Positions 27,165 through 58,440 of a stretch of 64,000 bases of DNA are shown here, piece by piece. Each line of letters starts with the position of its first letter. Position 1 is the stretch's first letter. The notes beneath the pieces are model-generated. The model was not told the origin of the DNA. It saw only the letters and a program-made list of their open reading frames with translations, and did no database searches. The stretch is from Nymphon striatum. Lineage: Eukaryota. Both the position numbers and the translations under genes were made by a program. The stretch lies in contig JABFOP010000225.1 in the NCBI GenBank assembly GCA_016618385.1, positions 15,735 through 79,734 on the forward strand. Reading direction: 5' to 3'.

Positions 27165-27690
27165 TGAGAGACCCTAGGTTGGCAAGCTTTTGGTCGCCTG
27201 AACAATGTTTGGCGCTGCAAGCTACCTCTCTGCTTGAAGCGGAAGGTATACAACCAATGTTTCCTGCCTGTACTAACGTATGGGTCAGAGACCTGGGCAA
27301 TTACAGATACCCTGTTGAAAAAATTGCCGAGTGCCCAACACAGTATGGAAAGAAAGATCCTAGGTGTGAGCTGGAGAGATAGAAAGACTAATAGTTGGGT
27401 GAGGATACACACAGGGTGTAAAGATTTGAACCAGACAGTGAAGAGTAGCAAGTGGTACTGGGCCGGACACTTGATCCGTAGAACAGGTGATAGATGGACC
27501 ATTAAATCCACAATTTGGATACCAGGTAGGGGAGGAAGAAAACGGGGAAAACCGAAGAGAAGGTGGGTGGATGATATAGCTAAGTTTGACAGGGATTGGG
27601 TGGAGAGAGCTGCCGATAGAGAGGACTGGAGAGCTAGACGGGAGGCCTTTGCTCAGCAGTGGGCCAGTATGGGCTGATGATGATGATGAA
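27165..27690 (+). mobile_element. 5'-truncated RTE-clade LINE copy (RT C-terminus …KVYNQCFLPVLTYGSETW…WAGHLIRR…GRKRGKPKRRWVDD…) ending in (TGA)n
   Basis: ORF 27234..27677. About 90 percent identical to 35515-36040. Confidence 0.8.
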
Positions 27691-29818: not shown

Positions 29819-32800
29819 ATTCAGTTTTAGTAGAGAGGCAGAATTGAAAAAGTGGCTTAGTTAAGGATTTAAAAATCATTTTGAGGTAGAGCATGGCATC
29901 CACCCTAGATGGGTTGGCTATGGGATGGGGCATATGCCCAGGTAGGATGACACCTAATATTTTTCCAAAATTTTGGTTTTTTAACCCTTTTCAGTCAAAA
30001 TGCCGGTTTCTCAAAAGTCAATATTTTTAGGGGTAGGGAAAGAAGAATTGGTCATAACAAGTTCAATTTTTATCTTAGAATGGCAATCTGCCATTCAAAT
30101 TCTAGCATTTGATGTCCTCTACAAACTCAAATATGAAATTAAAAAAAATAAAATTATTATAAAGGTATACAGGGTCAAATATCTAGGACTGGCCCTCTAC
30201 CCCCCAAAATACGACCCTTTGTCAAATGAGCCCTATGACTCAATTGTTCTGGTGTAGATGTAGGATTGTTGGGGTATTTTTCGGTAAGGGGACATATTCA
30301 GTCAGTTTTTGAAAAAGGTTTGAACTTGATAGGGCAACTAGACAGGGAGTACTGGGGGTACCAATTTGGACCCTTTTTCGATATTTGGCAAAACTTGGGT
30401 TTTTCACAACGCAACAGTCATGAAGGTAAAAAACTTAGGCCAAGAGCAATAGCTTTAACCTGGACATCGCTCATAACAAGCTGAATTTTTCAGGATAGGT
30501 CCAGGAATATGTGTAGAGTAACATACTAAATGTCTCCATAAATCCCCCTGGAGCTATCACCAAAAATCAAGATGGCGTCCAAAATATCCACCAAGCCTCC
30601 AATTTTGTCATAACTTTGCAACCAGAGAAGCTAAAGTAACAAATAAAGTGTCCAAACACATGTTTTAAGACACAAAGAATCTAATAAAATCATTATTTAG
30701 AGGTTTAAAACGTCCAAAATGGCCGCCAAGTTCCAATTTTGACATAACTTTGCAACCAGAGAAGCTAAAATTACAAATAAAGAGTCCAAACATATGTTTT
30801 AAGGCACAGGGAATCTAATAAAAACCTTATTTAGAGGTTTAAAAGGTTCAAAATGGCCGCCTAGTTCCAACTTTGTCATAACTTTACAACCAGAGAAGCT
30901 AAAGTTACAAATAAAGAGTCCAAACATATGTTTTAAGTCACACGGAATCTAATAAAAACATTATTTAGAGGATTAAAACGTCCAAAATGGCCGCCAAGTT
31001 TCAATTTTGTCATAACTTTGCAACCAGAGAAGCTAAAATTACAAATAAATAGTCCAAACATATGTTTTAAAGCACAAGAAATCTAATAAGCACATTATTT
31101 AAAGGTTAAAAACGTCCAAAATGGCCACCATTTTTATTATTTATTTTTTTATACTTTGTAATCAAACAAGTTATAAATACAAATGAAGTGACTAAACACA
31201 TCTTTTAAGGCAAAGAGAACATATGGTGCAAATATTATCTGTTACGTCAGTATTCATCTTCATTATCTGCTGCAGAATCTTCAACGCTAATGACCACTGA
31301 TGATGGTACAATGTCTTCATCATCGACATCTAATAATTACGGTGTTGTGTTGTTGCAAGTTTGACCACTGCGTTTACTGCACATTGAAGTGCAAAAGAGT
31401 CCAAGTTTATTGCAACTACATGTTATGTTGCTACAACCGTCAGGTTTTCAACTACACGGCACCATGTTGAGCAAAGATTCGGGTGCAACAGGCCTGTCTG
31501 TTTCGACTGGTGCAAGAGTTCCATCATGTGATCGCCATCCCCATTCTATTGGAGGCAAAGTATTACCCATCCATTCTTGAACAGTGTGATAAGTGCGGTA
31601 TGAATGTTTCTTTGCTGCAGCACTAGTTGGAGGAAGACTTGCTAGCTGAAATGATGAACTCGGGGAACAGCGCCCGATTGCCTTTTTGTATGCGATGTGG
31701 CGGTATTTATCAAGTGATTCAAAGTTGCTGGCCCCATAGAGTTTAAGAACAAAGGTTTCCCCGGCTCTTTTCACCTTGTCATGGGTGCTTCCATTTATAC
31801 CAGTCAAATTAGGGCTGGACCTAGAACAAATTGCAATAGAAGGTTTTTTTGGCTTTAACTTGTTCATTAGGTCTCTCTGATGAACATATAAAAAGTCTCC
31901 AATCTAATTTGTCATTCGATTAAAAAGTCGATTGTGAGTCGCCTATTGATCGTAATTGAATTTAGATTGTAGGCAGATTATAGAGCTTGAAGTAAGGAAG
32001 ACAACAATTCTCTAAGACAAGATGGACGTCACAGTCACGTGACTTTCATAGCAACCGCTTGTCTAGGGGCAAAAGAACTTGGTCGCTATGGCTTTGGCCG
32101 TGCTGTAAGTATGGTGATAGAGAACTTTTCCAATTCACTGCTTGTTTTAAATTATTTTAACGAACCGGGTGATTTAAATCAGCCTGAAATCAATTCTGGA
32201 GTATAAACAGGATTTGGATAAGCATTAAAAAGCATGGACTTACAATTCGGTTCTGTTTGATTTGATTAAATCATGTAGTCTGTACAGTGATAGTGTACAT
32301 AAATATCTCGACTCGGACAACCAACAAGCCTTTCGGCATGATTTAAACAAATCAAACATAGTCAAATTGTAAGTCCAGGCTTTTTAATACCTACCCATAT
32401 TCTGTTTATACTCCATAATTGATTCTATGCTGGTTAAAATCATCCAGTAAATCAAAAAAGCATTGGAAAACTTCACAATCACAAGTGCGTCCACAGTTAA
32501 CACGGTCAAGGCCATAGCGACCAAGTTCTTTTGCCCCTAGACAAACGGTTGCTATGCAAGTCACGTGATGAAAGCCCGGATGTTGTCTTACAGAATGTGT
32601 GTCTTGAAATCAAATTCCAAAATTTGGGCAAGTTATAGCCATTCTTATATCATGTACTAAATATAATATTTTCGTTTGAATCTAATTTGTCATTCGATTA
32701 AAAAGTCGATTGTGAGTCGCCTATTGATCGTAATCGAATTTGCATTGTGGGCAAATTATAGAGATTGAAGTAAGGAAGACAACTATGTGCGTCTTGAATC

Positions 32801-34512
32801 GATATTCTAAAATTTTCCAAAAAACCTTCTATTGTAATTTGTTCTAGGCCCAGTTAAATGATTGCTAGATTTACTGGACTATATATATGGAAATCGACTT
32901 GTCGAAACACAATAGGCGCGGTTTCATTGGGTGTCTTTAAATCTGAATAAGTTGCCGATTGTGTTCTAATTGACTCTGTAATTAGAAGCGGGAATGTATT
33001 TCTGGTAAAGTGATTTTATTTCTCACATGTCGCCAATGTTCTACAATTTGTTACGTCATTGTTAATTGTTATTGTTATACATTTTTTTAATGAGGTTTTG
33101 GATACTTATGATTTTTGAAACCTCTAGATAATGATTTTATTAGATTACTTGTGCCTTACAACATATGTTTGAACACTTTGTTTGTAATTTTAGCTTCTCC
33201 GGTTGCAAAGTTATGACAAAATTTGAACTTGGCGGTCATTTTGGACGTTTAAAACTTATAAATGATGATTTTATTAGATTCCCTGTGCCTTAAAATATAT
33301 GTTTAGACACTTTATTTGTAATTTTAGCTTCTCCGGTTGCAAAGTTATGACGAAATTGGAACTTGGCGGCCATTTTAGACGATTTAAACCTCTAAATAAT
33401 GATTTTATTAGATTCCTTGTGCCTTAAAACATATGTTTATACACTTTATTTGTAATATTAGCTCCACCGGTTGCAAAGTTATGACAAAATTGGAACTTGG
33501 CGGCCATTTTGGACGATTTAAACCTCTAAATAATGATTTTATTAGATTCCTTGTGCCTTAAAACATATGTTTAGACACTTTATTTGTAATTTTAGCTCCT
33601 CCGGTTGCAAAGTTATGACAAAATTGGAACTTGGCGGCCATTTTGGACGTTTTAAACCTCTAAATAATGATTTTATTAGATTCCTTGTGCCTTAAAACAT
33701 ATGTTTAGACACTTTATTTGTAATTTTAGCTTATCTGGTTGCAAAGTTATGACAAAATTGGAGGCTTGGTGGATATTTTGGACGCCATCTTGATTTTTGG
33801 TGATAGCTCCAGGGGATTTATGGAGACATTTAGTATGTTGCTCTACACATATTCCTGGACCTATCCTGAAAAATTCAGCTTGTTATGAGCGATGTCCAGG
33901 TTAAAGCTAATGCTCTTGGCCTAAGTGCTTTACCTTTATAACTGTTGCGTTGTGAAAAACCCAATTTTTGCCAAATGTCGAAAAAGGGTCCAAATTGGTA
34001 CCCCCAGTACTCCCTCTCTATTTGCCCTATCAAGTCCAAAACTTTTTCAAAAACTGACTGAATATGTCCCCTTACTGAAAAATACCCATAAAACCCTACA
34101 TCTATACCAGAACAATTGAGTCATAGGGTTCATTTCACAAAGGGTCGTATTTTGGGGGTAGAGGGTCAGTCCTAGATTTTTGACCCTGTATACCCCTACA
34201 ATAATTTTTTTTTTTAATATTTCATATTTGAATATGGAGAGGACATATAATTCTATCATTTGAATGGTATATTGCCATTCTAAGATAAAAATTGAATTTA
34301 TTATGAGCAATTCTTCTTTCCCTACCCCTAAAAATATTGAATTTTGTGAAACCGGCATTTTGATAGAAAAGGGTTAAAAAACCAAAATTTCGGGAAAAAT
34401 ATTAGGTGTCATCCTACCTGGGCATATGCCCCATCCCATAGCCAACCCATCTAGGGTGGATGCCATGCTCTACCTTCCAATGATTTTCAAATCCTGATTT
34501 ATCGATTCTGCC
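29819..34512 (+). mobile_element. Copy 2 of the same long-TIR element; carries a nested MITE at 32010-32595
   Basis: 29825-30540 is the reverse complement of 33830-34510. 120-bp arrays at 30545-31150 and 33110-33780. Internal ORF 31448..31867 is homologous to 7733..8332. Confidence 0.8.
32010..32595. mobile_element. Nested hairpin-forming MITE (about 585 bp, ~75-bp TIRs plus an internal palindrome) inserted into the 180-bp array of element copy 2
   Basis: Absent from the otherwise colinear copy 1: ggaagacaacaat|gtgtgtcttg is contiguous at 8470. Terminal inverted repeats acaagatggacgtcacagtcacgtgactttcatagcaacc... / ...ggttgctatgcaagtcacgtgatgaaagcccggatgttgtcttac. Confidence 0.75.
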
Positions 34513-35284
34513 TCTCTACTAGTTTGTGATTGTCAAGTGATAAGAGTAAAATTATGTTGCATAAATATCATCATCCTGCAACTTTACATAATATAAAATT
34601 ATTTATAATCATACATATATGACTACGCATCCAATTTCTACATGTACACATACGTACACATATAATAAATTCACGTAGACAAACGCACACACACTACAAA
34701 TCAGACATATATATATATTTATAAAGGGAAAGAATATGGAATGCCTACCCTTAAATTATATAATATTAGACTAGTAATTATTACATAAAAGTAGAATATT
34801 TTATTCGAAGAATTAATTCCTGAATATAAAGACCGTTCCAATTACAAATTTGAAATTACAACTGAATGTTTTTTCTGTCGGTTGACCTAATAGTCACACT
34901 TTTAAATTAATTTAAAGTTAATAATTATAATCAAATTTATATATAATTTAAATCAAATACAATTATTTTTAAAGATATTTAATACAGGAAACCCATCACT
35001 TATAATATAAATTATTAGACTTAGAAATTTTTCATACACAAATTTCAAATTCAAAATTGAAAAAAAATTCAAATTTCAACAGCCAAAATAGTCTATCAGA
35101 CGACCTGATACAATTATGGTTAATAAATAGGTGAATTCGATCCTAATGTGAAATGAAACTAATTTTAAATATTTATTATGGATATATTAAACTCAAGATA
35201 AATGATTTAGTAATTATAATCGTTTGTTTTGTTAGTAAACAAGTCAGAGATACTTAGCCATCATGTAAGAGATGTGCACTAGTC

Positions 35285-36040
35285 ACTGTCAACAACGGAA
35301 GTAGTCCTGTTCTCGGAGTCCCCTCAGGAGCTTCAACTTATGGTTAAGGAACTAAGGACTACCAGTAATAAAGTAGGTTTAGAGATTAATTTGAGTAAGA
35401 CTAAGGTCATGTTTAACAGAAATGTAGAAATCCAACCCAATGTGGCCTTGGACCAAGTTGATAGATATACTTATTTAGGACAGCTTACACAGAGACTTGG
35501 AACCGTGAGGCGACGTGTTGCCCTAGGTTGGCAAGCTTTTGGTCACCTGAACAATGTTTGGTGCAGCAAGCTACCTCTCTGCTTGAAACGGAAGGTATAC
35601 AACCAATGTGTCCTGCCTGTACTAACGTATGGGTCAGAGACCTGGGCAATTACAGATACTCTGTTGAGAAAATTGGCGAGTGCCCAACACAGTATGGAAA
35701 GAAAGATCCTACGTGTGAGCTGGAGGGATAGAAAGACTAACAGTTGGGTGAGGACACACACAGGGTGTAAAGATTTGACTCAGACAGTGAAGAGTAGCAA
35801 GTGGAACTGGGCCGGACACTTGACCCGTAGAACAGACGATAGGTGGACCACTAAATCCACAATTTGGATAACAGATAGGGGAGGAAGAAAACGGGGAAAA
35901 CCGAAGAGAAGGTGGGTGGATGATATAGCTAAGTGTGACAAGGATTGGGTGGAAAGAGCTGCCGATAGAGAGGACTGGAGATCTAGACGGGAGGCCTTTG
36001 CTCAGCAGTGGGCCAGTACGGGCTGATGATGATGATGATC
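35285..36040 (+). mobile_element. Second, longer 5'-truncated RTE-clade LINE copy ending in (TGA)n
   Basis: ORF 35340..36026 (228 aa) with RT C-terminal motifs. Same family as 27165-27690. Confidence 0.8.
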
Positions 36041-38686: not shown

Positions 38687-39166
38687 CTGAAAAAAAAATA
38701 AATTGGAAAAAAGAAAAAAAAATAAAGAATAAAAATAAATATATACATTAAATCAGGCTTTTAATTGCAAATTTTACAAACAGCAATACTATTATTGTTA
38801 AAACTGTGGTTTCAAAGTAGGTAACAGAAAAAGAAAATAAAAAAATCATCTCTACGTCAAATAAATGATGACTAGCAGGTAGCAAAATATTAATTTCCCC
38901 CAGAACCTCTAAGAGGCAAGTAGATTTGGCTTTATATCAGATGTCAGACAAATAGTTGTTAAGTATTGATCATAAATTTTATAATGCAGTGTTTCATCTA
39001 CACTTGCGTCCTGCATCATATAATGCATAAATTATCAAAAGGCACATCAAATGTTTGTATTTATGCTAATAATTTTATCCTATTACAGGGGCGGATCTAG
39101 GGGGGGGGGTGGATTGGGTGGCTAGCCACCCCCCCTTGCAACCCAAACATATTTTGTTCATAGTAT

Positions 39167-39562
39167 TTGATAAAATTCTTACTGACAAATGGGAATCCGA
39201 TCTCCCGTCATTATTCAATGAACTTCTTAGATTTGAGCAACAACCCCAAAAAGGTTTCTTCATCTTCATCAGTTACATATTTGATTCAGCATCATGCAGA
39301 CACTACATTTTTCCCAAATATCAGGGAGTTGCTGAGCATTCTTGCTGTATTGCCAATTGGAAGTTGTGAAGCCGAAAGGTCCTTTTCTTGTGTGCGGCGT
39401 ATTCACTCATGGCTTCGGTCATCTATGTCCACAGATAGATTATCAGACCTTTGTGTGATTGCCATGCATGGTAATATCCCTGTTTCCACTAAGGAAATTG
39501 TCAACCGCTTCATTACATTACATCCACGTCGAATGCAGGGACAAAGTCTTTTCTCGTTGTAG
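39167..39562 (+). mobile_element. hAT transposase C-terminal dimerisation-domain fragment (…LAVLPIGSCEAERSFSCVRRIHSWLRSSMSTDRLSDLCVIAMH…)
   Basis: ORF 39167..39562. Classic hATC motif SxxxERxFSxxxxIxTxxRxxLxxxxLxxL. Confidence 0.7.
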
Positions 39563-39829: not shown

Positions 39830-41235
39830 CCAAGAGCATTAGACGAAATAAGGCCAAACCTGGACATCGCTCATAACAAGCTGAATTTTTCAGGATAGGT
39901 CCAGGAATATGTGTAGAGTAACATACTAAAAGTCCCCATAAATCCCCCTGGAGCTCACTCCAAAAATCAAGATGGCGTCCAAAATACCCGCCAAGCCTCC
40001 AATTTTGTCATAACTTTGCAACCAGATAAGCTAAAATTACAAATAAAGTGTCTAAACATATGTTTTAAGGCACAAGGAATCTAATAAAATCATTATTTAG
40101 AGGTTTAAAACGTCAAAAATGGCCGCCAAGTTCAAATTTTGTCATAACTTTGCAACCGGAGAAGTTAAAATTACAAATAAAGTGTCCAAACATATGCTGT
40201 AAGGCACAAGTAATCTAATAAAATCATTATCTAGAGACATATAAGACAAATAAAGACATATAGCAAACCCGCTGTTCCCGGTTTACAGTCTGTTGTAATA
40301 TATCCTCTCAAGAATCATGATCAAGGGCTCCAGTCTCTCCGCTCAGCAGCTGCACTAGACGCCCTCTTGGTTTTTGGCTGTGTTCTGGAACTATCCCCTT
40401 GTCCTTCATGGAGTGGATTCATGAAAGTAGCCATACAAAGTGACCTATATGAGACAACCAGAATAGAAACTTTGCCCTTTATTAATCTGGACCCCTCCAA
40501 TCCGAGTACTATTTATACAGCATTATGCTTTGCACAAACACAGTGTGAAAAGCATGGTTTGAGAATATGTCCAGTCACATTTGATGAGCCGTTATATATT
40601 AAGGCTGCAGAGATTGTAGCTGCTTCACAAGATCTGGACATAGTGATCATCCGTCTTGTCGGATTTCACCTCTTCATGTCTTATCTTGGAAACATAGGTC
40701 ACATAATGACAGGAAGTGGGCTAGCAGAGCTTTGGGAGACGGTATACGCCAAAGGATCCGTCATACATATGCTATCTGGCCATGCCTTTTCTCGTGCTCT
40801 TCGTGCTCACATTCTTACTTCAGCTGCCCTCATTGGTGTCTTGATGGGTACACCTGGCGCCTTAGAGAAATTAGACAAAGAACACTTAGAGAACCTTTAC
40901 AGAGCCCTTCTTAACCAGGACAAGAACGCCACTGACATAGCCGAGGAGGAATGCGTCAAACAGTTAAGCCAGATCATTTCATAACTCCTTGACCAGGCTG
41001 CAAGTCAGAGCAGAGCAGAGTCAGAGCAAGTCTTCTCTGGTTGCAAAGTTATGACAAAATTGGAGGCTTGGTGGATATTTTGGACGCCATCTTGAATTTT
41101 GGAGAGAGCTCCTGGGGGATTTATGGGGACTTTTGTTATGTTACTCTACACATATTCCTGGACCTATCCTGAAAAATTCAGCTTGTTATGAGCAATGTCC
41201 AGGTTAAAGCTAATGCTATTGGCCTAATAGGTGAA
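39830..41235 (+). mobile_element. Third, rearranged derivative of the long-TIR element. Inner-TIR plus 120-bp-repeat fragments (39830-40250 plus; 41030-41230 minus) flank a 205-aa ORF.
   Basis: Sequence identity to 6700-7100 and 10130-10330. Confidence 0.6.
40367..40984 (+). CDS. ORF of unknown function carried between the TIR-derived fragments (…ICPVTFDEPLYIKAAEIV…GSGLAELWETVYAKGSVIHMLSGHAFSRALRAHIL…). Candidate transposase or passenger fragment.
   Basis: 205-aa uninterrupted ORF in an otherwise non-coding intron. No motif I can assign confidently. Confidence 0.3.
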   Translation: MVFGCVLELSPCPSWSGFMKVAIQSDLYETTRIETLPFINLDPSNPSTIYTALCFAQTQCEKHGLRICPVTFDEPLYIKAAEIVAASQDLDIVIIRLVGFHLFMSYLGNIGHIMTGSGLAELWETVYAKGSVIHMLSGHAFSRALRAHILTSAALIGVLMGTPGALEKLDKEHLENLYRALLNQDKNATDIAEEECVKQLSQIIS

Positions 41236-41494
41236 GGAAAATTCCTATCCTAGCCACCCCCCTTTCAAAATTCCTAGATCTGCCTCTGTATTATCTATAC
41301 TTCCATTAGGAGGCAACCAAAAAATTACCAAATTACGTTGAATCGCATAATGATCAACAATTTACATTTAACGAAGTTAAGCTACATTGAAAAATCTGTG
41401 CTGATTGGCTGAGTCTAATTATGTCCCTTCTTTTTAGCAAATCGTCTTGCATAGTGTTATGCAGGTGCTCCATTTCATCAGGACCGTCCACTCT

Positions 41495-41760
41495 ACATTT
41501 TTTTTTTTCAAATAGTGAATTGTGTTCTTTAACACACAGAAAGTGTGACTATCCTCTACACAGGGCCTCCAACAACATCCTATTTAAGGAACAGAGTATT
41601 TTCTCTCCTAAACCAGCCTCCATCAGATATCAGAGAGGAAAGTACGAGAATGAACAACATAGAGGGTGAAAGAGTGGAGGGCTCCGATAATATTTGAACT
41701 TGGGTTATTCCAGCTCAGAAAGATTATATACCACTCAGACACCTGTGACTGAGAGTTAAA
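41495..41760 (-). mobile_element. SINE copy (minus orientation)
   Basis: Reverse complement of SINE body and head (…ctgagctggaataacccaagttcaaat…). Confidence 0.6.
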
Positions 41761-41805: not shown

Positions 41806-42075
41806 ATTTTCATGAACTCCAAAATGTCTCAGTTTCTGACAAGCTAATTCAATAAAAAGAGGAAGGCCAGCATCTTGTTTTGATGTTAATAATCTGAGAA
41901 GATTGTTGAATGGTGAACTATCAAGAACTTTCCTATATTTTCCTAATGAATTGATGACTATATTTTGTCTTGTTGCCAATTCCAAGGGCGATATACTCAT
42001 TTGAAGTTTTGATATGTTGGACATTTTTTCAGAAATTTCAGAATCGCTAGTTGAACTGCACACAATTGAAACACC
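41806..42075 (-). CDS. NACHT exon (GVSIVCSSTSDSEISEKMSNISKLQMSISPLELATRQNIVINSLGKYRKVLDSSPFNNLLRLLTSKQDAGLPLFIELACQKLRHFGVHEN)
   Basis: ORF 41770..42063 extended to acceptor catttacag. Donor gtaagt. 270 nt, phase 0 in and out. Confidence 0.7.
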
Positions 42076-42146
42076 CTGTAAATGAATTATTTATTGAGTA
42101 TATTAATGAAAAAATATACAATTTAAACTAATCAAATTTATCTCAC

Positions 42147-42297
42147 AGAGGGGATATCAGTAGGCAGCCACGTCAGGTCAGCAGCTTGATGTGATGTAGA
42201 AAGTAAATTCATACCATCAATGAAAATGAACAAACGTTTGGTAGGAGATACTGTCACAGCATTTGAAATGATTAAGAAGAATATCTTCACAAGTTCA
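42147..42297 (-). CDS. NACHT Walker B exon (ELVKIFFLIISNAVTVSPTKRLFIFIDGMNLLSTSHQAADLTWLPTDIPS)
   Basis: hhhhDGhD Walker B motif (LFIFIDGMN). Acceptor ttttttccag, donor gtgaga. Phase consistent. Confidence 0.75.
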
Positions 42298-42577
42298 CTG
42301 GAAAAAAGATTATGATTACATGCATAAAATAGTAAATAAACTTTTTAATTCTGAAGAAATATTTGAAAGTTTGAAGTTTATTTAACATAAAGATAAATTC
42401 ACTGGAACTTGTAAGACTAAATGAGGCTCTGATCCATTAATTGTAAAGAAAACAGAGAGTTCAGAGAAGAATATAGAATAGTCTTCTCTGATTTAATCTT
42501 TATACAGAAATTACACGGCAAGTACAAAGAAAATATTTATTTTTAACAAAAATTAGGGAAAGAAATTTCAATCGTAC

Positions 42578-42735
42578 TTATAAGTATCTGGAAGTCGAAT
42601 TTCCAAAGAAAATTTTGTGATTATGTCATAACATATATGTCTTAGTAAAGCTGCAACATTATCTGAATTTGGAGTGAGTCCAACGAAATGAATTACACTT
42701 GGATTCTGGCTAGCAAATTTTCCATACAGAAAAGC
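42578..42735 (-). CDS. NACHT exon (AFLYGKFASQNPSVIHFVGLTPNSDNVAALLRHICYDIITKFSLEIRLPDTYK)
   Basis: Acceptor tatag, donor gtacga. Phase 0 in, phase 2 out. Confidence 0.6.
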
Positions 42736-43442
42736 CTATATAAATAAACAATAATAAATATATACACATTAGTACATAGAGGATACGTAATGAGTGCCCA
42801 TCGTATACAGAATATACGTGCTCGTAAAAGTTGTTGTTATTTTCAGCGAGCCTTGGCGGGCTTAAAATAAATCAATGTTAGCGAGTTTCATATATTCTAT
42901 ATGCGACGTGAACGAGTTTGGTATTCTGTTTATCACATAATCAATAGATAGCTTTGAAAATGAATTAAAATGAATTTAAAATAGATTCAATTTAAATAAG
43001 TGTAAAATGTTTTAGCATAAAATGGCACATTTCTTCCCCAGGCAGTCTTCCCGTTTAAAAGGGGGCATTTAAAGAGGCCATTAAAAAAATCACTCCTGTT
43101 ACTTCAAAACATAGATATTTTAGAATATTATTCTAAATATTATTATTGAATTAGCAAGTCATTAAAAGAGGGACTGAAAACTATTAAGAGCCATTTGTCA
43201 TTGTTCAAGATTATTGTCACTTTAAATCGGTTACCCATTAAAACATCTCTCTCCGTTAAGCAGTTAATTGTTTCATAACACGTTTTTACACGCGTGTTTA
43301 TATGATTTTTATGTCCATTGAGATCAGTAGAATAAACGCACTAATATTTGATAATTATGTATATGGAATTAAAAATTCCAAATCTAGAGTAAGCATGGTA
43401 CTGATTTCATAGCTTAAAATTGTAGGATTTAGACAAAATTAC

Positions 43443-43628
43443 CATTAAAGATGTTTTGCCACTTCCAGGTCTTCCCATTATACAAAATAACCCAGAATTC
43501 TTTGAAATCTGTTTCAAATTATCTGTGTGCTTCAATAAATTAGTTGGAAGAACATATTCTTCAATTCGACGATTAGCAAAGTCTTCATGAAGATTTGATT
43601 CATGGTCCAACTCAGATGCTTGAACATA
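43443..43628 (-). CDS. NACHT Walker A exon (YVQASELDHESNLHEDFANRRIEEYVLPTNLLKHTDNLKQISKNSGLFCIMGRPGSGKTSLM)
   Basis: P-loop GRPGSGKT preceded by a hydrophobic strand, typical of NACHT. Donor ATG|gtaatt. Confidence 0.8.
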
Positions 43629-43769
43629 CTAAAGATCCAAAATAAAGAAATGAACAATTAATAATAAATTTATTTATGGTCCTTCAGATGCAGATTAATT
43701 TATTAAAATTGAAATTAAATAAAAAAAAGAAAAAAAAAATATAATTATTAAGATGGAGGACATATTTAC

Positions 43770-43899
43770 CTCAACATTGTATGAGTTGTATGTGTTGGTG
43801 AAGGCATACCATAGATTATCAATTACACTTTGACCAAAATGATTTAAACCTTTCACAACAGGCTTACCATTGAAAACGCCACCCCACTCACAAGGATAA
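43770..43899 (-). CDS. Linker exon (RYPCEWGGVFNGKPVVKGLNHFGQSVIDNLWYAFTNTYNSYNVE), 130 nt
   Basis: Needed to restore phase between neighbouring exons: entry phase 2, exit phase 0. Acceptor ttttttag, donor gtaaat. Confidence 0.55.
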
Positions 43900-44729
43900 C
43901 TAAAAAATCATACACAGAATGGGTACACGACATTCTATTATAATAATCAAATTGGAACCATTAGAATAAATCTTATTAAATATAGTAATCCTATAGAATG
44001 TTCTTGCTAACAGATCAAATAGTTCACCAACAGATTAAATCATCATATAAATCTCAACATATAATATTGATGATTCCAGCTTGATGATCCAGCTAATGAC
44101 TAACCTCGGTGTTGACCTATGTACATTTACTTTGTTTCCAGATTTGGGTAATATTTTAATAGGTATTATAATAGTATTTAATAGGTATTGTCCCACATTA
44201 TATTTAATTTATGCATAAAATTGCATAAATTATGCAGAAAGATTGTATTTCAGGGAAATATAAAGGGGCAAACAGATTTTTACTTTAAGGTTCTTATATT
44301 ATGATTTATGTAAGTCTGACTAATCTTTATAAATTTGACAATTATTGACAACTATTCATAATATTTCATTTCTTCATCCACTGAGATGAGGTAAAATATA
44401 TACTTCATTGATAAATAAAAGAGCAAAAACGATTTGCTTGAACTTCATGGTGTATATTTTTTAAAACATAAAAACAAAAAACAAAACAAACGTTTCGGCC
44501 TGCAAGGCCATCCTCAGTGGATAACATATAACATATAGTACAGTGATGACTTCGTATATATACAGAAATAGAAAATAAAATCTTCAAGATATCCTGACGT
44601 AATCATGAAGCCAATGCAAATTTATTTTACATTGACTTCATGAGTACCTCTGGCGACAAGCAACGGAAAAGCTGAAATGTTGTCATTTAGTTTGGGTCTA
44701 TTTTTTAAAATGTAAAGGCTTTCCAGGAT

Positions 44730-45480
44730 TCTCAAATTCAATGTGTTTTCTCAGTATCGAGAATGCGGAAATTATTTAGGTTAACTGAACACCCACATGT
44801 TTGTGAGTGAAGGTGTATGTTGCTGTTAGTATCGGATAAAGGAGGTTTGTTAGTCCGGGCACTCCTGTGAGCATGTTCAGTCAGACGTTGATATAAGTGT
44901 CTCTTAGTTGAACCGACGTAAGAGACTGGTGCATTGCGTGCACAACTATATTCGTAAACAATGTTTGACCTCATGCCCAAAGAAAGCCTGTCTTTAAAAT
45001 GAAAAAAGGAGTTAATTCGAAATTTATTGATTAGTATTATTTGTATATTATGATTTTTATAAAATTTATTAAGGAATATGAGAAGGTCAGATTTGAGTTT
45101 AATAGATTGGTGTCCAAAGTACGGAAGGGTAAAATAGAATTTGTTATCTGATGAAGTTTGGGAGTCCTGAGCAGTAGAATATAGATTGTTGAGAAAATTT
45201 TTGATATATTTGTTAATTAGGAATTCGGGAAAATCGTTATTATGGAAGAAGGTTTTTAAGAATTGAAACTCAGAGTGCAAGGTATGAAAGTTAGAAGAAA
45301 TCTTATAAGCACGAGAAATGAGTGTTAGTATGGTAGAAAGTTTGAATTGTGGTGGGCAGAAGCTGAAATAGCTTAACCCTAGACCTGAGAATGTGGGTTT
45401 TCTGTAAACGGAAGTTGTAAAAGTTAGTGAGCTCTGCAGTCATACAGCAAAAAATACAAACTGAGTAAAAGAGAAATCTC
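44730..45480 (-). mobile_element. Penelope-like element (PLE) 3' fragment with GIY-YIG endonuclease domain (…NIVYEYSCARNAPVSYVGSTKRHLYQRLTEH…)
   Basis: ORF 44738..45280. YVGxTxRxLxxRxxEH GIY-YIG signature preceded by PLE-typical conserved blocks. Confidence 0.65.
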
Positions 45481-45509
45481 ACTGATATTCAAAATTGATC
45501 ATAAATTAC

Positions 45510-45626
45510 CGAGCATCCATTGCTTCAAAACCACTTGTTATCATTTTATCCTGCAAAGCTGTCACTTTCTGTTTCTTAGTTGAATCATGTTCAATAAAAT
45601 GTTCAATCCATTCAGGTGGCACGTCC
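45510..45626 (-). CDS. Linker exon (DVPPEWIEHFIEHDSTKKQKVTALQDKMITSGFEAMDA), 117 nt
   Basis: Only one frame open. Acceptor ttaattag, donor gtaatt. Phase 2 in, phase 2 out. Confidence 0.55.
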
Positions 45627-45712
45627 CTAATTAAATAATGGAAATAGGCACATAAAGTCAATTGAAAAACAAAAAATAATATTCAGATAATACCTAAAAA
45701 AATTATCTTTAC

Positions 45713-45964
45713 TTTATGAAAGTGGAATCCCTAATAAAGAAGAATGTATTATTCTTATGTTTATGTTTCTGGCTTTCGTCGAAAATGCCAGCAGCATACA
45801 TTTCCAATTCAGTCACAGATGTACCAGATGGACAATCCTTAACCCAGTCAAATGTTGGGTCATTTGGCAAATCCTGAACATCTGGTATCCATCCATATCT
45901 CTCACCAAGCATCCCAATAAAGAACTCACTTTTAGAAACTTCTCTTAGACACATTTCTAATAAC
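45713..45964 (-). CDS. DUF4062 exon 2 (LLEMCLREVSKSEFFIGMLGERYGWIPDVQDLPNDPTFDWVKDCPSGTSVTELEMYAAGIFDESQKHKHKNNTFFFIRDSTFIK)
   Basis: Conserved FIGxLGeRYGW motif. Acceptor tttag, donor gtaaag. 252 nt. Confidence 0.75.
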
Positions 45965-46649
45965 CTAAACAATTTAAAATTAGCTGAATGAACTAAAAGA
46001 TGATTAAGCTTCAGGAATGGAATTGTAAATTACATTTAATTTAATGAAAAAATTCTAGGAACTAACATTGGAGTATACAATCAATATAGCATGTAGTAAT
46101 AAATATATGACAAAAATTGAAAGGATTGTGATGATATATCATAGTAACAATTAGAAATGATATGACCAGAATTACAAAGTATTTTAAAAGTTAACCATTT
46201 ATAAAAAATAAACCAATATTAACACAACACAATTGCAAGAAATTAAATAACAGACATTTCACACTATCATAAAAAAATAATAAACAAAAAATAAATTGAT
46301 ATGTACTGATGATGAACAAAAAGTAAGGGATTTGAGAAAAAAAAGCATGACAATTAAAATATAGAAGTTTATTTTTGAAAAAGAAAAAAAAAAAAAAAAA
46401 AAATGAAGTATGACGGGGAAATTACCCAGAGGCTAGTGGCGGACCAAACCAATCTGGTGCATAAACTCAGTTTCATTTAAGTTAAACTAGCCCATGACTA
46501 TTTTACTATTCATACCCATTAGAGTTTATGGTTCCTATTTCTCAATTTTGCCTGTAGTCTGCATATCGGCAGTTAATTAATTAATTAAATGTTGATTGAT
46601 TCATTTGATTAACTACACAAAGAAAAGCTCTTACATTTGGGTGAAGGGT

Positions 46650-47960
46650 ACGTTTATTTGTTGATCAGGTACTTTGTATACCACATCGACATTCAGTTTA
46701 CCTGGTCAGAGGATCTCTTCCGATGTCAGACAAAAGCTCAACATACTTCAGAATGCTGTCCTTTTTGCGTGGCTTGCCAGAAAGGAAGTAGTGTTGGAAC
46801 TAGTAAGGGACATGCTGGAACATGCCAGTAAGAATAACGCAGTCTCAGGTTTGAGATGCCAAGCAGTAAGAATAGCATTCACTGGTAGTGGTATACATTT
46901 GGGCTTTTTGCTAGTCCTAGCTTTCATAGGCACCTTTTTGTTTTCAGGACAATGGGCTAGTAGCAGCAAGACACCTGTGTCTCTGGACCATACAACAACT
47001 GTAGGTGAATCAGTATGTACACAGTGTAAGAAATACCAGCAGGGTTGCATCTAGAAATTGAAAAAAAGGGGAGATATCCCCCCTAATTTTCAGAAAAAGG
47101 GGGGCATGCCTCATTCTTAAATATTTAAAAGGAGGAATACATTTTTAACTTAATTTCCACTCAAAATTAAAGTCTACTTACAAATCCAAACACTTTATCA
47201 TGCACGTTGTTCGTCTTAGTTCTAGATATACCCATAAACGTTAGTTTTTTTTCCACTTCTGACAATAAATCTTAAACATTCACTTTACTGTCAAACAGTG
47301 AGTAACTTACAAATATCTGATCCCATAGACTAGTAATTTACAGTAATTTATTGCACTAAGCTCACATGGGCTTATGGCAAATACAAGAAAATATAAAATA
47401 ATAAAATAAAAATAATGGTAATGGTAATACAATTACAACAAAAATACCTTCCAAATGGATAGCAGAAGTACTACAAGGCAAGAAAAGATCGAATTTGAAT
47501 GAACAGCTTTTGATGCTGAATCTAGACAAAACCGGCATTTTGACAATGTTTCTTACATAATATTTATTTGAAAAGTACGCACAGCCGTTAAAACTTTGCG
47601 GGCAATTTTATATTATTGCGGGATAGAGCCCGCACAGTCTTGTCATTTTTGCGGGATGAATTAATTTTTCGCGGGAGTCCCGCAATCCCGCGCTCTAGAT
47701 GCAACCCTGTACCAGGTGAGTATCTGCTTCCTCATGAGTGCTTCTTAAGCCTTCCACATCAACTCCAGGCCTACTGCACGACACATCTGTAGCCTCTGTT
47801 AATCCACCAGCTGTTATGACACATTTATTATCAAGTGCATTTCTGATTAGTTCCTGTGAGTGGAAGTTAGCCAGATCGGCTTTGCTCCGAGAGTTACAAA
47901 GGAAACCTTGATAATCCTGGGGTATAGGGATATCAGGAGTTTCAAATACTCTGCAGATGG
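46650..47960 (-). pseudogene. Disrupted copy of the FEN/XPG-like PIN-domain ORF family (…RSTHEEADTHLV | MITE | …VVVWSRDTGVLLLLAHCPENKKV…)
   Basis: HEEADT and DTG..LLLA motifs align with HEEADTRIF and ATDTDIIVLA of the plus-strand copy at 63.6-63.8 kb. Interrupted by the MITE and a 1-nt frameshift. Confidence 0.55.
47046..47711. mobile_element. hAT-like MITE (about 665 bp) with 16-bp TIR CAGGGTTGCATCTAGA and 6-bp TSD TACCAG, inserted into a PIN-like nuclease pseudogene
   Basis: Perfect terminal inverted repeat. Flanks gaaaTACCAG|cagggttg ... caaccctg|TACCAGgtgag. Confidence 0.7.
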
Positions 47961-49246
47961 ATTTACCTTTCTTTCTTCTTGTCTTGCTTGGTTCCTTCCA
48001 TTATAAAGTAACTCATATAATCAAATGGTACATTAACCCTGACAAAATGCCTGACTTATTGGACACCAGATTAAAAAATATTTTTGCAAACTCTCCAAAG
48101 GTACACTACAAGGACTTGGACATTTATCAGCAGTTCCGTCTTCAGAGTGCCATCTATCTCTGCAAGTGCTAGAGGTACTACAAGAAGTTCATATAAAAAG
48201 GAAAAGTTATCAAATTCCTTTATGTTTTGTTCATTAAATGATTCAGCCAGAATTATTAAAATACAAAGTTTTTAAACTTCAATAAACATAAAATGTGATG
48301 ACTTTTGCCTTTAGTCAAACACTGTATAAGGATAAAGTTCAACAACAGAAAATATATTATTTTGGTCCAAATACAAATATATTTAGTGATTTAGTTTGCA
48401 CTCAAATGTTTGAAATTTGTATTCTGTCCATTAGGTCAAAACACTCATAAATCTTTGGGCTATTTCCAAAGTGACTACTGCTTCAATGGATATTATTTAT
48501 TTACAGTTTGCAGTATATATTCACAGTGGGTTTGCCGTTACCTTGTATCTATTCCATAGTATTGCTATATTTATATATACTTTCAAAAACATAACATTTT
48601 AATGCCTATAGTAATGCCTATAGTGTCATTAAAGAATATTTTAGTTTACCTTTGATAAAATGTTTACAACCTGGTAAAATAATCCTTTCTCTGACATATC
48701 TACAATTTGAGTTAAAAAATTTCAGTTTCTAAGATCGTCATATTTGATGAAAAAATTAATTTTTAAAGGTCCACTAAAGTGGGAAAAAAAAATCTAAATC
48801 GTGTGAAAAATAATCAATTAGGTCCACACTAATACACTGAATGCATTTTGGTAAAATTAATTAGCCACTTTTAATAAGAAAAACGGTCTCAAACTACAAG
48901 AATTTACACTCATCCAAATTTGCCATACGTCATACGTGTGACGTCAGACAAGACACTTGTCACTACACCTATCGAGTCAAAATGGCGAGTTCTAATGCCA
49001 GATATGAAAATGTTGACAATGTCATTGACACTCTTTCCTCGTCGTCTGAGATAAGTGAAGATGAAATAGATCTAAGCTCGTGTGAAGACTATTGTGAAGA
49101 AATTGGCGGTTGGGGCAAGTGTGTGGAACCATACAAATTTCAGCCTCTGAAAAGTGTAAGCGAAGACTGTCCCAGTGACACAAATCGAAGACATTTACTG
49201 GGGTTAAAAATGTTATGTTTAAAGGTCTGACTAAGAGACAAAGAAA

Positions 49247-49795
49247 TCAGTGATTAGATTTTAAAATTAGCGTCAACAGTGGACTTACCCTTGTTCTCTC
49301 TCGTTTTTGGAACGCCAGTTCCCTCCGGATTTTGCCAGACTTTCGCTTTGGTGTGGATGAATGTTGAGGATGAAAATTCTCCTCTTCTGGACTATTCTTA
49401 ACATTCCCCGCATAAGGTAAAGTCACAGCCGTGCTTGACAGTAAATCCGAGGTCTCGGCATGTTCGCTGTGGGCCTCCAGCTCCATGGTCATGCTTGTCT
49501 CATAAGCGATTTCCATGAAGTGATCTGGCAAATGTGGTAGTTGTTCAGATAAAACAGTCTTAATTGTTGGAACAGCATCGGGTTTCAACTTTTTCCGATA
49601 ACCAAATAAAATTTCCAATTCTGTAGTTTCATACCAGTCATCTTGAAAATGACCAGAACACAAAGCCGACCACTGTGTCGGATGGGTTCATTTGCGAGTC
49701 ATTTTCACAAACCTCGTCCATTTTCGGGTCTTTTGGCCATTGATGTAACACATATCCTTCCCTGTTCGTGTTGCTACACCCACCCAAAGCGCAAC
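49247..49795 (-). pseudogene. THAP-domain ORF (MPRCCALGGCSN…HQWPKDPK… / …CSGHFQDDWYETTELEILFGYRKKLKPDAVPTI…) with an internal frameshift. Possible remnant of a P-element-like or THAP-carrying transposon.
   Basis: C-x2-C … FPKDP … CSxHF … LKxDAVPTI THAP signature split over two frames. CRE palindromes TGACGTCA at 48943 and 49933 bracket the unit. Confidence 0.5.
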
Positions 49796-50544
49796 AACGT
49801 GGCATACCTCTCAGAATATTGCAGTAAAGTACTTGTTAAAACACTTGCCGGAGGTTAAGTAAGTAAGTAAGTAAATAAAGGCGGTAGGGCTATGTGTCAA
49901 GTTTTCAACAACAATAAGCCTGTGTGTCAGCTTTGCCAGCATTTCTAGTCTGACGTCATAGCTCAGAAATCATTACAAACGAGAAATGTATGATAAAACT
50001 CTAAAATGTTCACTTTTATAATTTTCACATCGAAAAACAAACTGGTACAACTGATAAATATAGTATTTAGGAATTCATTTTTGACAAGTGAGTTTGGACC
50101 TTTAACACGGGCAGTTGCGGAAAATATTAGGGGGGTACTACTACTATGTATATAGAAACTGAGATTATGCAAGGTGTTTCACATGCAGTCAAGGGGTAAA
50201 ATACCCCCAAATGTGGCATTCATAAAAATATTTTAATGCTGCAACATCATTCACATTATATTATTATTATTTAATCACCTTATTTTTCAATTAATTGTCA
50301 TTAAAATCCTCAAAATCCAATACACGGTTACTGACTGACAAATCAGCTTGCTATAATAATGTACATTATATGCATCTAATTGTGGCATAGTTACAAATAT
50401 ATGTGTGCGCAATTTGACTGCTTTGAAGTATACTGCTTTCACTCTCCGCTGTTTTCGTCTGGACCACAACAGTGGTGCTGCCCCCTGGTCAATGCAACGG
50501 AACTAGAGAATTTTAGAGTCGTCCATTGTGTGTTGGCGAGGAAA

Positions 50545-50820
50545 TCATCTTTATGTAATGTACTTGCACTATGTACCACTTCACTGGGACCTTCCACCCT
50601 ACTCTTGTTCGAATAGTGAAGTGGGTTCTTTAATGTGCAGAGGGTATGGCTCTCCTTTACATGGAACAGAGTATTTTCTCTCTCAAACCAGCCTGCATTC
50701 AGTATCAGAGAGGAGGGCACGAGAATACACAACATAAAGGATGAAAGAGTGGAGGGTTCAAACCTGGGTCATTCCAGCTCAGAATAGAAATCTTAACCAC
50801 TCAGCCACCACGCTCTCCTA
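50545..50820 (-). mobile_element. SINE copy (minus orientation), nearly full length
   Basis: Reverse complement of ggagagcgtggtggctgagtggttaagat… head plus core. Confidence 0.7.
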
Positions 50821-51073
50821 ATAAGAATAATGATACATTTATTCCTAAAAAAAAATTGTAATTCGATACAGTTCTTATTTTATTCAAAATAAATATGATA
50901 TCTTGATGTAATTAATTAAGGGGTGAGGAAAGTTTTCAAAATTTCCTTGACAAGAGCTCTCAAAAACTTTAATCTATTTTAATCCATTTACTCTTTCAAC
51001 ATGAACAATAAAATTTGATCTTAATATATATACACAAAGTACTAAAAAACAGATGAATGAAACATAAACGTAC

Positions 51074-51250
51074 TTGGAACTTTCAGACTGAGATTCAACA
51101 AGTCCCCATCGAAAATCAACTTCGTAAACTTTGAGATAGAGACATTTAGCTCTTTCTCGCAATTCAGGAAAAACAAATCTAACAAGTAAGTCTCTTTCAG
51201 CATACATATCAAGAAAGGTTGAAGAAATGAAAACTTGAGTTGTCCTCCAT
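51074..51250 (-). CDS. DUF4062 exon 1 (WRTTQVFISSTFLDMYAERDLLVRFVFPELRERAKCLYLKVYEVDFRWGLVESQSESS)
   Basis: Hallmark DUF4062 motifs FISSTF-DM-ERD ... LRWG as in NWD1/NWD2/TEP1. Acceptor ttttaag, donor gtacgt. 177 nt, phase conserved. Confidence 0.75.
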
Positions 51251-51312
51251 CTTAAAATTACAATAACATGTTAGGAAAAACACATTTGATACAAAATTTG
51301 ATAAATGTAGAA

Positions 51313-52012
51313 ATACAGTCATTTGCAAAAGTATCAGACCACCACTGCAAAATCGCCAATTTGGCAACCCTGCTAGTTATTGCATCATGCTTAATTTGCA
51401 TTGCATCATCTTTTTTGTATTACAAGGTTCATTGTCTTAGTAGAGTTCCAGCCTAGTTTCAGACTGGAGTTACAAGTGCTTTGTTTCATTTTGAGTTATT
51501 TTTTCGATTTTCAACTGCCCAAAAAAGGGGGAAAATCGGCACCATACGGATGTAGAACATGCTCAGATTGTTGTACTCCACAAAAATGGATTGTCTCAGC
51601 ACCAAATATTGGAACAACTTGGTGTCAGTAAGTCATCCATTCAAAGAGCGATCGAAAAATTCAACAGGGAAAGAATTTATGGCAATCGGAAGAAAAGTGG
51701 GAGGCCTCGCAAATCATCTCCACGAGATGACAATACTATGAAGAGGATCGTAGTGCGGTCTCCCACGAGTTCCTGCAAAAAAGTTTGCACGAACTTTGAG
51801 TAATAGAAAATCGAAAAAATAACTAAATATGAAACAAAGCACTTGCAACTCTGGTCTGAAACTAGGCTAGAACTCAACTAAGACAATGAACCTGTAATAC
51901 AAAAAAGATGATGCAATACAAATCAAAGCATGATGCAATAACTAGCAGAGTTGCCAGATTGGCGATTTTGCAGTAGTGGTCTGATACTTTTGCAAATGAC
52001 TGTAAGTAAAAT
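51313..52012 (+). mobile_element. Internally deleted Tc1-like DNA transposon (about 700 bp). Its ~200-bp TIRs are flanked by TA and it retains only the N-terminal HTH part of the transposase.
   Basis: TIR cagtcatttgcaaaagtatcagacc... at both ends in inverted orientation. ORF 51591..51803 (…QILEQLGVSKSSIQRAIEKFNRERIYGNRKKSGRPRKSSPRDDNTMKRIVVRSPTSS) matches the Tc1 paired-like HTH. Confidence 0.8.
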
Positions 52013-52137
52013 CAGCGATTTAATATCAGAAAAAGAGAAATAATAGTAAAAAAAAAGTTGGCTCCTTAAGAATGTTTGCAATAAAACTGGACCTTAAGAG
52101 GACCTAAAAGGACATAAATATTAAAATCAAATCTTAC

Positions 52138-52316
52138 TTCGGAATTTTTATAGGAGACAAAACATTATCAAGAGAAATTGGTTGCCTCTCTTTCACTGCA
52201 TCTGATTTAGGGTCGTGGAATGACTGTGGCTTTGACTTCAATTCATAACGAGAATCTATCTTTTCAATCATCATCAGTTGTCCATTACCGCCTCTCTCAG
52301 CGATCAACCTTAATGA
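52138..52316 (-). CDS. Exon (LIAERGGNGQLMMIEKIDSRYELKSKPQSFHDPKSDAVKERQPISLDNVLSPIKIP); ends in phase 2 with donor gtaaga
   Basis: ORF 52134..52352. The phase-2 exit matches the phase-2 entry of the next exon, giving ...IPK-WRTTQVFISSTF. Confidence 0.5.
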
Positions 52317-58194: not shown

Positions 58195-58440
58195 TAGTGC
58201 AGGTGTACCACTTCACTGGAACTTACAACCTACTCTGCCTTGAATAGTGAAGTGGGTTTTTTAACATGCAGAAGGTACAGCTCTCCTCTAAACCGGACCT
58301 TGATTAACATCATATCCAAGGAACAGAATATTTTTTCATCTGAACCTGTCTGCATCTGATTTGGAGACATAGACACAATAATGCACAATGTAAAAAATAA
58401 ATAGTAAATAGGAGGTTCAAATGAGATTCAAAATTTGGTC
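58195..58440 (-). mobile_element. SINE copy (minus orientation, diverged)
   Basis: Core cttcactggaac…gaatagtgaagtgggtttttaacatgcagaagg. Confidence 0.5.

Follow-up and report, generated by a model that had tools for sequence, protein, structure and literature searches.

A window of 64,000 nucleotides (nt) from the Antarctic sea spider Nymphon striatum (Pycnogonida; GenBank assembly GCA_016618385.1, contig JABFOP010000225.1, positions 15,735 to 79,734; coordinates below are those of the window, descending for minus-strand exons) carries on its minus strand a gene that we identify, with high confidence in both identity and structure, as the orthologue of TEP1 (telomerase protein component 1, a minor protein of the vault). 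It is an ordinary conserved gene of a known family, at a locus already named TEP1 in GenBank, and the AT-rich window (~33% GC) contains its 3' four-fifths. Our curated model has 39 exons, all with GT-AG borders: U1 to U6, E1 to E13, and W1 to W19, with Wx between W16 and W17. It runs from 60674 to 2579 over 58,096 bp and encodes 2,052 amino acids (aa) in a single open frame, except for a 1-nt frameshift in U5. An earlier note on this DNA had put the introns at about 50 kb, and they do total 51,938 nt against 6,158 nt of coding exon. Exons were found by reading the three minus-strand frames around each open segment and chaining splice sites and phases; the coordinates of the WD40 exons and the stop codon came from mapping the deposited protein KAG1680650.1 back onto the window. 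Read directly from the curated protein, the domain order is TROVE C terminus, vWA/DUF5920, TIR-like domain, NACHT, APAF1-type helical domain, WD40 propellers, and a TEP1-specific C-terminal module.

The segment that the earlier note had singled out (41806 to 52316) encodes an effector and a switch: a TIR-like NAD-cleaving (NADase) domain in E2 to E5, followed by a NACHT P-loop ATPase in E6 to E9. The lower bound of that segment was exact, and the upper bound was 8 nt too high; E1 begins at 52308, since there is no AG between 52361 and 52310 and the sole upstream AG ends at 52309. All nine exons have an AG immediately upstream and a GT immediately downstream, and once joined they form an open frame of 537 aa. 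E1 to E9 end in phases 2/2/2/2/0/0/2/0/0 and E10, outside the segment, in phase 1, a series identical to the one read from the letters alone in the earlier note. E1 (52308-52138) holds the end of DUF5920 (LIAERGGNGQL...) and a spacer before the TIR-like domain. E2 (51250-51074) encodes the N-terminal part of that domain, with VFISSTFLDMYAERD at 51234-51190 and an RWG loop at 51114-51103, and E3 (45964-45713) encodes its core.

Two short exons follow, E4 (45626-45510) and E5 (43899-43770), which the earlier note had placed exactly and argued to be real. Both align with the human TEP1 TIR-like domain (PDB 11gz_A), as the C-terminal third of the domain and not as the linker that they had been taken for. 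E4, with AG/GT borders and phase 2 on both sides, aligns with approximately residues 150-190 of 11gz_A, while E5 (YPCEWGGVFNGKPVVKGL...DNLW) encodes the C-terminal beta-hairpin and helix and is matched in tblastn by the homologues P0005, P0001, and P0121. The NACHT opens in E6 (43628-43443) with Walker A (GRPGSGKT, 43475-43452), continues through E7 (42735-42578) and E8 (42297-42147), the latter carrying Walker B (LFIFIDGMN, 42233-42207) and the conserved WLP motif, and ends with its helical part in E9 (42075-41806; PFNN...LACQKLRHFGVHEN). Both nucleotide-binding motifs reported earlier are therefore present. The chain is not a product of chance, because E2 to E5 match 11gz_A and the same exons, except for the donor of E2, occur in KAG1680650.1.

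Upstream, U1 (60674-60481; NAVIKSKQFPFRF...), bounded by AG/GT sites and in phase, encodes the C-terminal part of TROVE, and U2 (60399-60213) encodes its end and the start of a vWA-like region. That region continues through U3 (59025-58876; LAAMCLTKCE..., aligned with 15 TEP1 proteins) and U4 (57321-57220, which the deposited model stops early at 57237) into the vWA/DUF5920 exon U5 (55752-55602), where the frameshift lies, and U6 (55515-55444; NDVYISGFSDQVLR), which belongs to the DUF5920 region. The Pfam TROVE profile matched U1-U2 at 42.6 bits (cut-off 23) over positions 336-442 of 442, the last quarter of the domain, and tblastn of TEP1 orthologues reaches U1 (P0131, for example, from aa 607). 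DUF5920 scored 25.8 bits, just under its cut-off of 27. U3 to E1 are collinear with 15 TEP1 proteins, and U6 and E1 splice in phase into E2. A TROVE domain, seen in the window as a partial profile, thus precedes the rest of the protein, and a vWA-like/DUF5920 segment separates it from the TIR-like domain, with the frameshift in the exon for the central beta-strand. Because U1 opens with an acceptor site, at least one exon must precede it; its counterpart in full-length orthologues is residues 575-690, which leaves ~600 aa outside the window. The expectation that the 5' end lies beyond 60.7 kb is borne out by this acceptor and by the TROVE profile starting at 336/442.

Downstream of the singled-out segment, E10 (38686-38554) and E11 (37098-36918) encode a winged-helix region (Pfam HTH_NWD1 at E10, 22.4 bits, under its cut-off of 27). 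E12 (29190-29084), for which the deposited model has no counterpart, chains in phase between E11 and E13; tblastn of P0131 and P0129 covers 29192-28506 directly after E11, which supports it. E13 (28987-28497) encodes an APAF1-type helical domain (Pfam APAF1_C, 44-45 bits; cut-off 22.8). The WD40 part comprises W1 to W6 (27969-27874, 26451-26327, 26249-26100, 25433-25325, 25247-25131, and 25046-24954), W7 to W11 (23803-23716, 23335-23229, 23148-22994, 19935-19836, and 18148-18044), and W12 to W16 (17674-17561, 17383-17242, 15279-15143, 15066-14764, and 13528-13254). These 16 exons match KAG1680650.1 exactly, with GT-AG junctions and chaining phases, and score 95 bits with Pfam WD40 and 67.6 bits with Beta-prop_TEP1_2nd, the latter below its cut-off of 89. 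Six weak homologue matches are among those listed for the WD40 part, and generic WD40 proteins saturated the candidate list.

Exon Wx (12518-12413; NSSPVEQVCVNGDSKEFVIYSVDSYGKISKSNVKY), which is WD-like and placed by splice sites and phase, is not in the deposited model. It bridges W16 (phase 2) to W17 (phase 0) and so restores the frame without a transposon exon. W17 (4395-4192), W18 (2911-2795), and W19 (2713-2582) encode the TEP1-specific C-terminal propeller module, which fills the Pfam profile Beta-prop_TEP1_C (85 bits, positions 1-73/73, cut-off 32), and a TAA stop follows at 2581-2579. The 3' end is inside the window: orthologues align to their last residues, and aa 2619-2700 of the 2701 of P0131 align at 2914-2597. 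An APAF1-type helical domain is thus followed by WD40 propellers that end in a TEP1-specific module.

To collect homologues, we aligned four TEP1 fragments taken from databases and searched 1.8 billion representative proteins with the resulting profile; many full-length TEP1 proteins (2200-2900 aa) were among the matches. The curated protein aligns with P0130 in one high-scoring segment pair (HSP; aa 1-1370 against aa 575-1933, 778 bits), and single HSPs of ~1350-1390 aa link it to each of P0129, P0130, P0131, and P0132. Its C-terminal HSPs end within 1-2 residues of the termini of P0129, P0131, and P0132. In these alignments, the predicted protein is collinear with full-length TEP1 orthologues (2500-2750 aa) through to the end. 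The gene is assigned to TEP1 and not to NWD1, as the earlier note had proposed, because TROVE, DUF5920/vWA, the TEP1-specific C-terminal propeller, and this collinearity occur on the same strand and in the right order; the GenBank name agrees. NWD1, NWD2, TTC41, and NPHP3 share with the sea spider protein a core of TIR-like domain (DUF4062) and NACHT followed by WD40 or tetratricopeptide repeats, but they have neither the TROVE-vWA extension nor the C-terminal propeller, both of which are found here.

We gave some thought to whether the DUF4062-NACHT-WD40 part could be an NWD1/NWD2-type gene, with the TROVE/vWA exons at 55-61 kb forming a separate, Ro60-like gene upstream. The U5 frameshift does formally part the TROVE/vWA exons from the NADase-NACHT-WD40 exons, and HTH_NWD1 gave its 22.4-bit match; that domain, however, is family-wide, and its score in the window is below cut-off. 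NWD1 and NWD2 have the TIR-like domain at the N terminus with no TROVE-vWA, whereas here the TROVE/vWA/DUF5920 exons splice in phase and the DUF5920 of U6 and E1, which leads into E2, is TEP1-specific. The best match among solved structures is TEP1 (11gz), the single HSPs run from vWA to WD40, and the C-terminal propeller module is full length and specific to TEP1. We regard the chance of two separate genes as vanishingly small and treat the locus as one TEP1 gene.

The domain that the earlier note had called DUF4062 now has a known function. Renamed TeTIR or NIR, it has been shown to be a TIR-like NADase that uses a catalytic glutamate (10.64898/2026.05.01.722283, 10.64898/2026.09.21.753143, 10.64898/2026.09.04.749371), and the same three 2026 preprints report that human TEP1 hydrolyzes NAD+ inside the vault via E1008. 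In a search of solved structures, PDB 11gz_A (220 aa) aligned with E2 to E5 over 218 residues (E=8.8e-52), gapless over the E2/E3 junction and continuing through E4 and E5, where YPCEWGGV (E5) is identical in the human and sea spider proteins. Pfam DUF4062 scored 53.2 bits on E2-E3 (cut-off 24.7).

With an offset of 893 between the 11gz chain and human TEP1 numbering, the sea spider protein conserves F902, S905, R914, R942-W943-G944, C959, R976, and the catalytic E1008. The cysteine (C959) lies in EMCLRE (45957-45940) and the arginine (R976) in GERYGW (45906-45889), both in E3, and the catalytic residue is the second E of SVTELEM (45819-45799), also in E3. Residue roles in this domain come from two of the preprints (10.64898/2026.09.21.753143 and 10.64898/2026.05.01.722283). 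In the human protein, activity needs F902, R914, R942, C959, and R976, the bulky substitution S905E abolishes it, and mutation of R908 lowers it (2026 preprints). Two positions differ here, R908 being Leu (codon 51213-51211, within VFISSTFLDMYAERD) and R954 being Lys; the R908 position varies among TEP1 orthologues. The catalytic Glu, the RWG loop, the Cys, and the Arg are thus kept in an early-branching chelicerate, and R908 is not. A TIR-like domain with catalytic Glu and RWG loop lies directly upstream of the NACHT, and the sea spider protein is predicted to be an active NADase.

Aligned with 15 TEP1 proteins, the NACHT region conserves Walker A, the Walker B aspartate, WLP, and the block PFNN...LAC.ELR.FGV. 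Asn (codon 42212-42210) follows DG(M/L) in Walker B; most TEP1s carry Asp at this position, which varies among orthologues. The Pfam profile NPHP3_N scored 26.1 bits on the E6-E9 region, above its cut-off of 24.8. The region is a NACHT-type P-loop ATPase with both Walker motifs.

One database protein in our set, P0157, matches the window at 100% identity in ~40 pieces. It is GenBank KAG1680650.1, "Telomerase protein component 1 [Nymphon striatum]," 2,442 aa, and it comes from the same locus, being 100% identical over 37 of the 39 curated exons (counting U4, U5, and E2, each trimmed at one end). This deposited model is chimeric. It begins at the TROVE C terminus; within the singled-out segment it shares E1 and E3 to E9 with ours and ends E2 at 51081. 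It adds five transposon-derived exons (49620-49289, 47994-47713, 46799-46702, 31820-31456, and 8105-7748) and omits E12 and Wx, the exon at 31820-31456 standing in place of E12. Dropping the transposon exons and adding E12 and Wx restores a single frame. For the singled-out segment, the gene model of the earlier note is right exon for exon and better than the deposited one, which places 238 aa of transposon open reading frame (ORF) between E2 and E3.

Could the deposited model be correct, with ORFs of a THAP/transposase element and of a second, terminal inverted repeat element exonised into a 238-aa insert in the NADase domain and two 120-aa inserts later? All of its junctions are GT-AG, its frame is kept, and TEP1 and the transposon ORFs share one strand. 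The inserts, however, have no counterpart in any TEP1 orthologue and break an otherwise continuous alignment: against orthologues KAG1680650.1 gives three HSPs, and its residues 391-624 and 1146-1287 are unmatched while the subject coordinates run on. The first insert splits the gapless match to the human crystal-structure domain (11gz) and opens in the middle of a THAP domain, without the zinc-binding cysteines. Peptides of this 238-aa insert recur at 84-93% identity on other N. striatum contigs, where they are annotated as hypothetical or THAP proteins or are fused into the unrelated models of ER metallopeptidase (1-A), GLYR1, and hnRNP 27C. The exons at 31820-31456 and 8105-7748 are one ORF taken from two copies of a single element flanked by terminal inverted repeats. 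The deposited model also has to drop E12, which homologues cover, and its E2 donor scores 0.3 against 5.3 for ours (the splice-site matrix was built from the sites of the TEP1 gene itself, so that the comparison is slightly circular, the curated sites being in the training set). There is only a very slight chance that the deposited model is the right one, and we retain the curated model.

At least three other N. striatum gene models are likewise chimeric with transposon ORFs, which suggests that the annotation was run without adequate repeat masking. A corrected 39-exon model, the recognition of transposon contamination in a public annotation, and a single-base frameshift hidden by that annotation are by-products of this analysis. 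In transposon-rich introns, chaining exon phases from raw sequence can outperform automated annotation.

The frameshift lies in U5. Right after a strong acceptor, the exon reads IDNLIILVLEDLMNLAKQKWMY and then a stop (~55686-55684), and from 55702 the next frame reads AEMDVLNDFLHMYRKRINPDLLFVRINVS. Frame 1 stops after KQKWMY, and 71 nt separate two blocks that are read in different frames, IDNLIIL... and ...DFLHMYRKRINPDLLFV. All 15 aligned TEP1 proteins conserve the two blocks, the counterparts being IDNLIILSDG...DFLNKYRHLVNPNLLFVNVDLS in Saccoglossus and, for the first block, (I/L/V)DN(L/I)xxL in others. With only 71 nt between the blocks there is no room for an intron, so one nucleotide must be missing. 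The chains U1-U5 and U5-W19 are each self-consistent and out of register with each other by one base. No canonical splice combination avoids the frameshift while keeping both blocks: every internal acceptor of U5 is phase 1, and no phase-1 donor of U4 can be paired with one of them without losing IDNLIIL. KAG1680650.1 bypasses the break by pairing a cryptic U4 donor (57237) with a U5 acceptor at 55722 (score 1.4 against 5.6), and the IDNLIIL strand is lost. The earlier note had called the gene apparently intact and functional; this holds for the open 537-aa segment and fails for the whole gene as assembled.

We consider it substantially more likely that the U5 frameshift is an indel error or a minority haplotype than that it is a fixed inactivation, because the 39 exons (6.2 kb of coding sequence) show no other lesion, its flanks are conserved, it lies beside short A runs (GCAAAGCAGAAATGG), and the source is a draft genome built by PacBio sequencing of a pool of 40 animals (PMC12220506). 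The competing account, that the gene was inactivated recently and is now a pseudogene or a segregating null allele, takes the deletion as real: it would truncate the protein after TROVE and part of vWA, with everything downstream intact only because the lesion is young. A frameshift and an in-frame stop are indeed present in the sequence, no canonical splice combination keeps both U5 blocks in frame, and the one frame-preserving path uses the weak acceptor and deletes a strand found in 15 of 15 TEP1 proteins. That account must also explain why a dead gene shows a single defect, with conserved sequence on both sides of it and short A runs of the kind at which long-read indels typically arise, in a draft from pooled animals. 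We judge recent inactivation unlikely, and the favored reading remains that this TEP1 copy is probably functional.

A further possibility is that the frameshift is real and tolerated, either through a TEP1 with an incomplete vWA made by the cryptic splice or through a NADase-NACHT-WD40 module made apart from TROVE; in a weaker variant, the THAP-derived exons are genuine coding exons within the NADase domain. We hold this to be highly improbable. If true, it would describe an animal NAD-cleaving STAND protein uncoupled from its vault RNA-binding head.

Several observations weigh against a working, full-length TEP1. As assembled, the frame is broken in U5, so that a full-length protein is impossible from the exact sequence, and the sole bypass is the cryptic splice that drops a universally conserved vWA beta-strand. 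Beyond the window lie the N terminus and three quarters of TROVE (~600 aa), so that the gene is only presumed complete, and a sensitive tblastn search of 32 TEP1 N termini against 60.6-64.0 kb gave no credible upstream exon on the minus strand. Every exon junction is a sequence-level prediction, as are splicing and expression of the gene, and no homologue aligns at Wx, for which splice sites, phase, and WD-like sequence argue. R908, which contributes to human TEP1 activity, is Leu. Of the Pfam families with which the earlier note had proposed a comparison, TROVE, DUF4062, and WD40 matched, and the generic NACHT model reached 16.7-19.4 bits, below its cut-off of 26.7. The same tblastn search also gave weak plus-strand matches at 63067-63186 (E 0.009-0.5), which we judged spurious; they lie inside a long, GC-rich, transposon-like ORF and are not independent of one another, because the queries are mutually homologous.

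If the protein works as its human orthologue does, the TROVE and vWA pair would bind small RNA polymerase III RNAs (vault RNA) and dock the protein in the vault, and the NACHT, helical, and WD40 part would act as an APAF1-type STAND switch that oligomerizes. By analogy with the human protein, the sea spider TEP1 may thus be associated with vaults. This working is predicted because of orthology with human TEP1, for which the 2026 preprints show it.

Human TEP1, a vault and telomerase ribonucleoprotein component of 2,627 aa, has the same order of TROVE, vWA, TIR-like NADase, NACHT, helical, and WD40 domains, and the TEP1-specific C-terminal propeller is present in the sea spider too. The two differ in that human R908 is Leu and R954 is Lys in the sea spider, with Asn in place of Asp after DG in Walker B; the comparison leaves aside the N-terminal TEP1 repeats and most of TROVE, which fall off the window, and the sea spider protein is known from its sequence alone. 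The curated model could be used for comparative work on the newly found NADase activity of TEP1.

Vaults were once thought to have been lost in arthropods (PMC3762200), a view corrected by the report of a salmon louse LsTep1 (2,427 aa) and of MVP orthologues across Crustacea and Chelicerata (PMC11219742). According to that report, with which we compare our gene by description and not by sequence, arthropods outside the winged insects have kept their vault genes. Given that TEP1 and MVP are known from crustaceans and chelicerates, a TEP1 in a pycnogonid is to be expected. More distantly, the bacterial DUF4062-NACHT defense proteins (Avs-NIR, Swarozyc, Vulcan/Vesta, and Evangelion) show ~30-33% identity over the DUF4062-NACHT core and follow the same NAD+-depleting effector logic (2026 preprints). 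They are encoded by single ORFs without TROVE/vWA and are triggered by phage proteins; the animal protein is not known to sense pathogens.

The ~52 kb of intron carries remnants of DNA transposons and retroelements. Of the mobile elements that the earlier note had described there, a terminal inverted repeat element of ~4.7 kb was confirmed (as two copies, outside the singled-out segment); THAP, Tc1-like, hAT, and reverse-transcriptase pieces were also found, and the Penelope-like assignment is based on motifs and had no Pfam match. Decayed THAP-type transposon ORFs occupy 46702-49835 (minus strand) in the 5.1-kb E2-E3 intron and have no counterpart in TEP1 orthologues; the remnant at 49250-49687 (minus) matches Pfam THAP at E=1e-5, and a search inside this intron found no terminal inverted repeats. 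A Tc1/mariner-like helix-turn-helix ORF lies on the plus strand of the E1-E2 intron at 51495-51800 (Pfam HTH_29 3e-9, HTH_23 1e-8, and HTH_SB 4e-5). Also on the plus strand are an ORF with a Pfam hAT dimerization domain (39164-39559) and a reverse-transcriptase fragment (35283-36023, with a copy at 27168-27674).

In the E4-E5 intron, a 233-aa minus-strand ORF (44741-45439) contains a GIY-YIG-like motif recognized by eye (VYEYSC...YVGSTKRHLYQRLTEH) and is probably the tail of a Penelope-like element. For this ORF and for the reverse-transcriptase-like pieces at 53.7-54.4 kb, the Penelope-like label is motif-based. Pfam returned nothing for either of these, for the ORF of the terminal inverted repeat element, or for the plus-strand ORFs at 62.4-64.0 kb, so that the class names given to all of them are tentative.

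The terminal inverted repeat element (~4.7-4.8 kb) occurs at 29825-34551, in the E11-E12 intron, and at 6111-10960, in the Wx-W17 intron, in the same orientation, with a fragment at 39857-41227. Its terminal inverted repeats are ~1.2 kb long, with arms of up to 927 nt at 91-94% complementarity, and the copies are 94-100% alike. The arms hold 134-bp tandem subrepeats, and the interior has 190-bp repeats and an ORF (SSPNLTGINGSTHDKVKRAGETF...) without a Pfam match.

At the upstream edge of the window, 62398-63999 (plus strand) is a GC-richer block (45% versus 33%) with three consecutive long ORFs, which probably encode a related DNA-transposon transposase; one of them contains NHEEADTRIF, a motif that recurs as HEEADTHL in the THAP-element ORF at 47713-47994. 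Three introns share a dispersed repeat of ~70-200 nt, 67-82% alike (41486-41684, 50587-50759, and 58218-58290), a candidate family of short interspersed nuclear elements (SINEs) or miniature inverted-repeat transposable elements. ARAGORN found no tRNA in the window; Rfam gave a marginal tRNA match at 22060-22132 (minus; 30 bits, gathering score 29, E=0.033), possibly the head of a SINE derived from a tRNA, within the W9-W10 intron. Finally, two copies of a 172-nt segment (11121-11292 and 11872-12043) lie exactly 751 nt apart, and between them are three 101-nt tandem repeats (11493-11795) that translate to a repetitive Cys/Gly-rich ORF.

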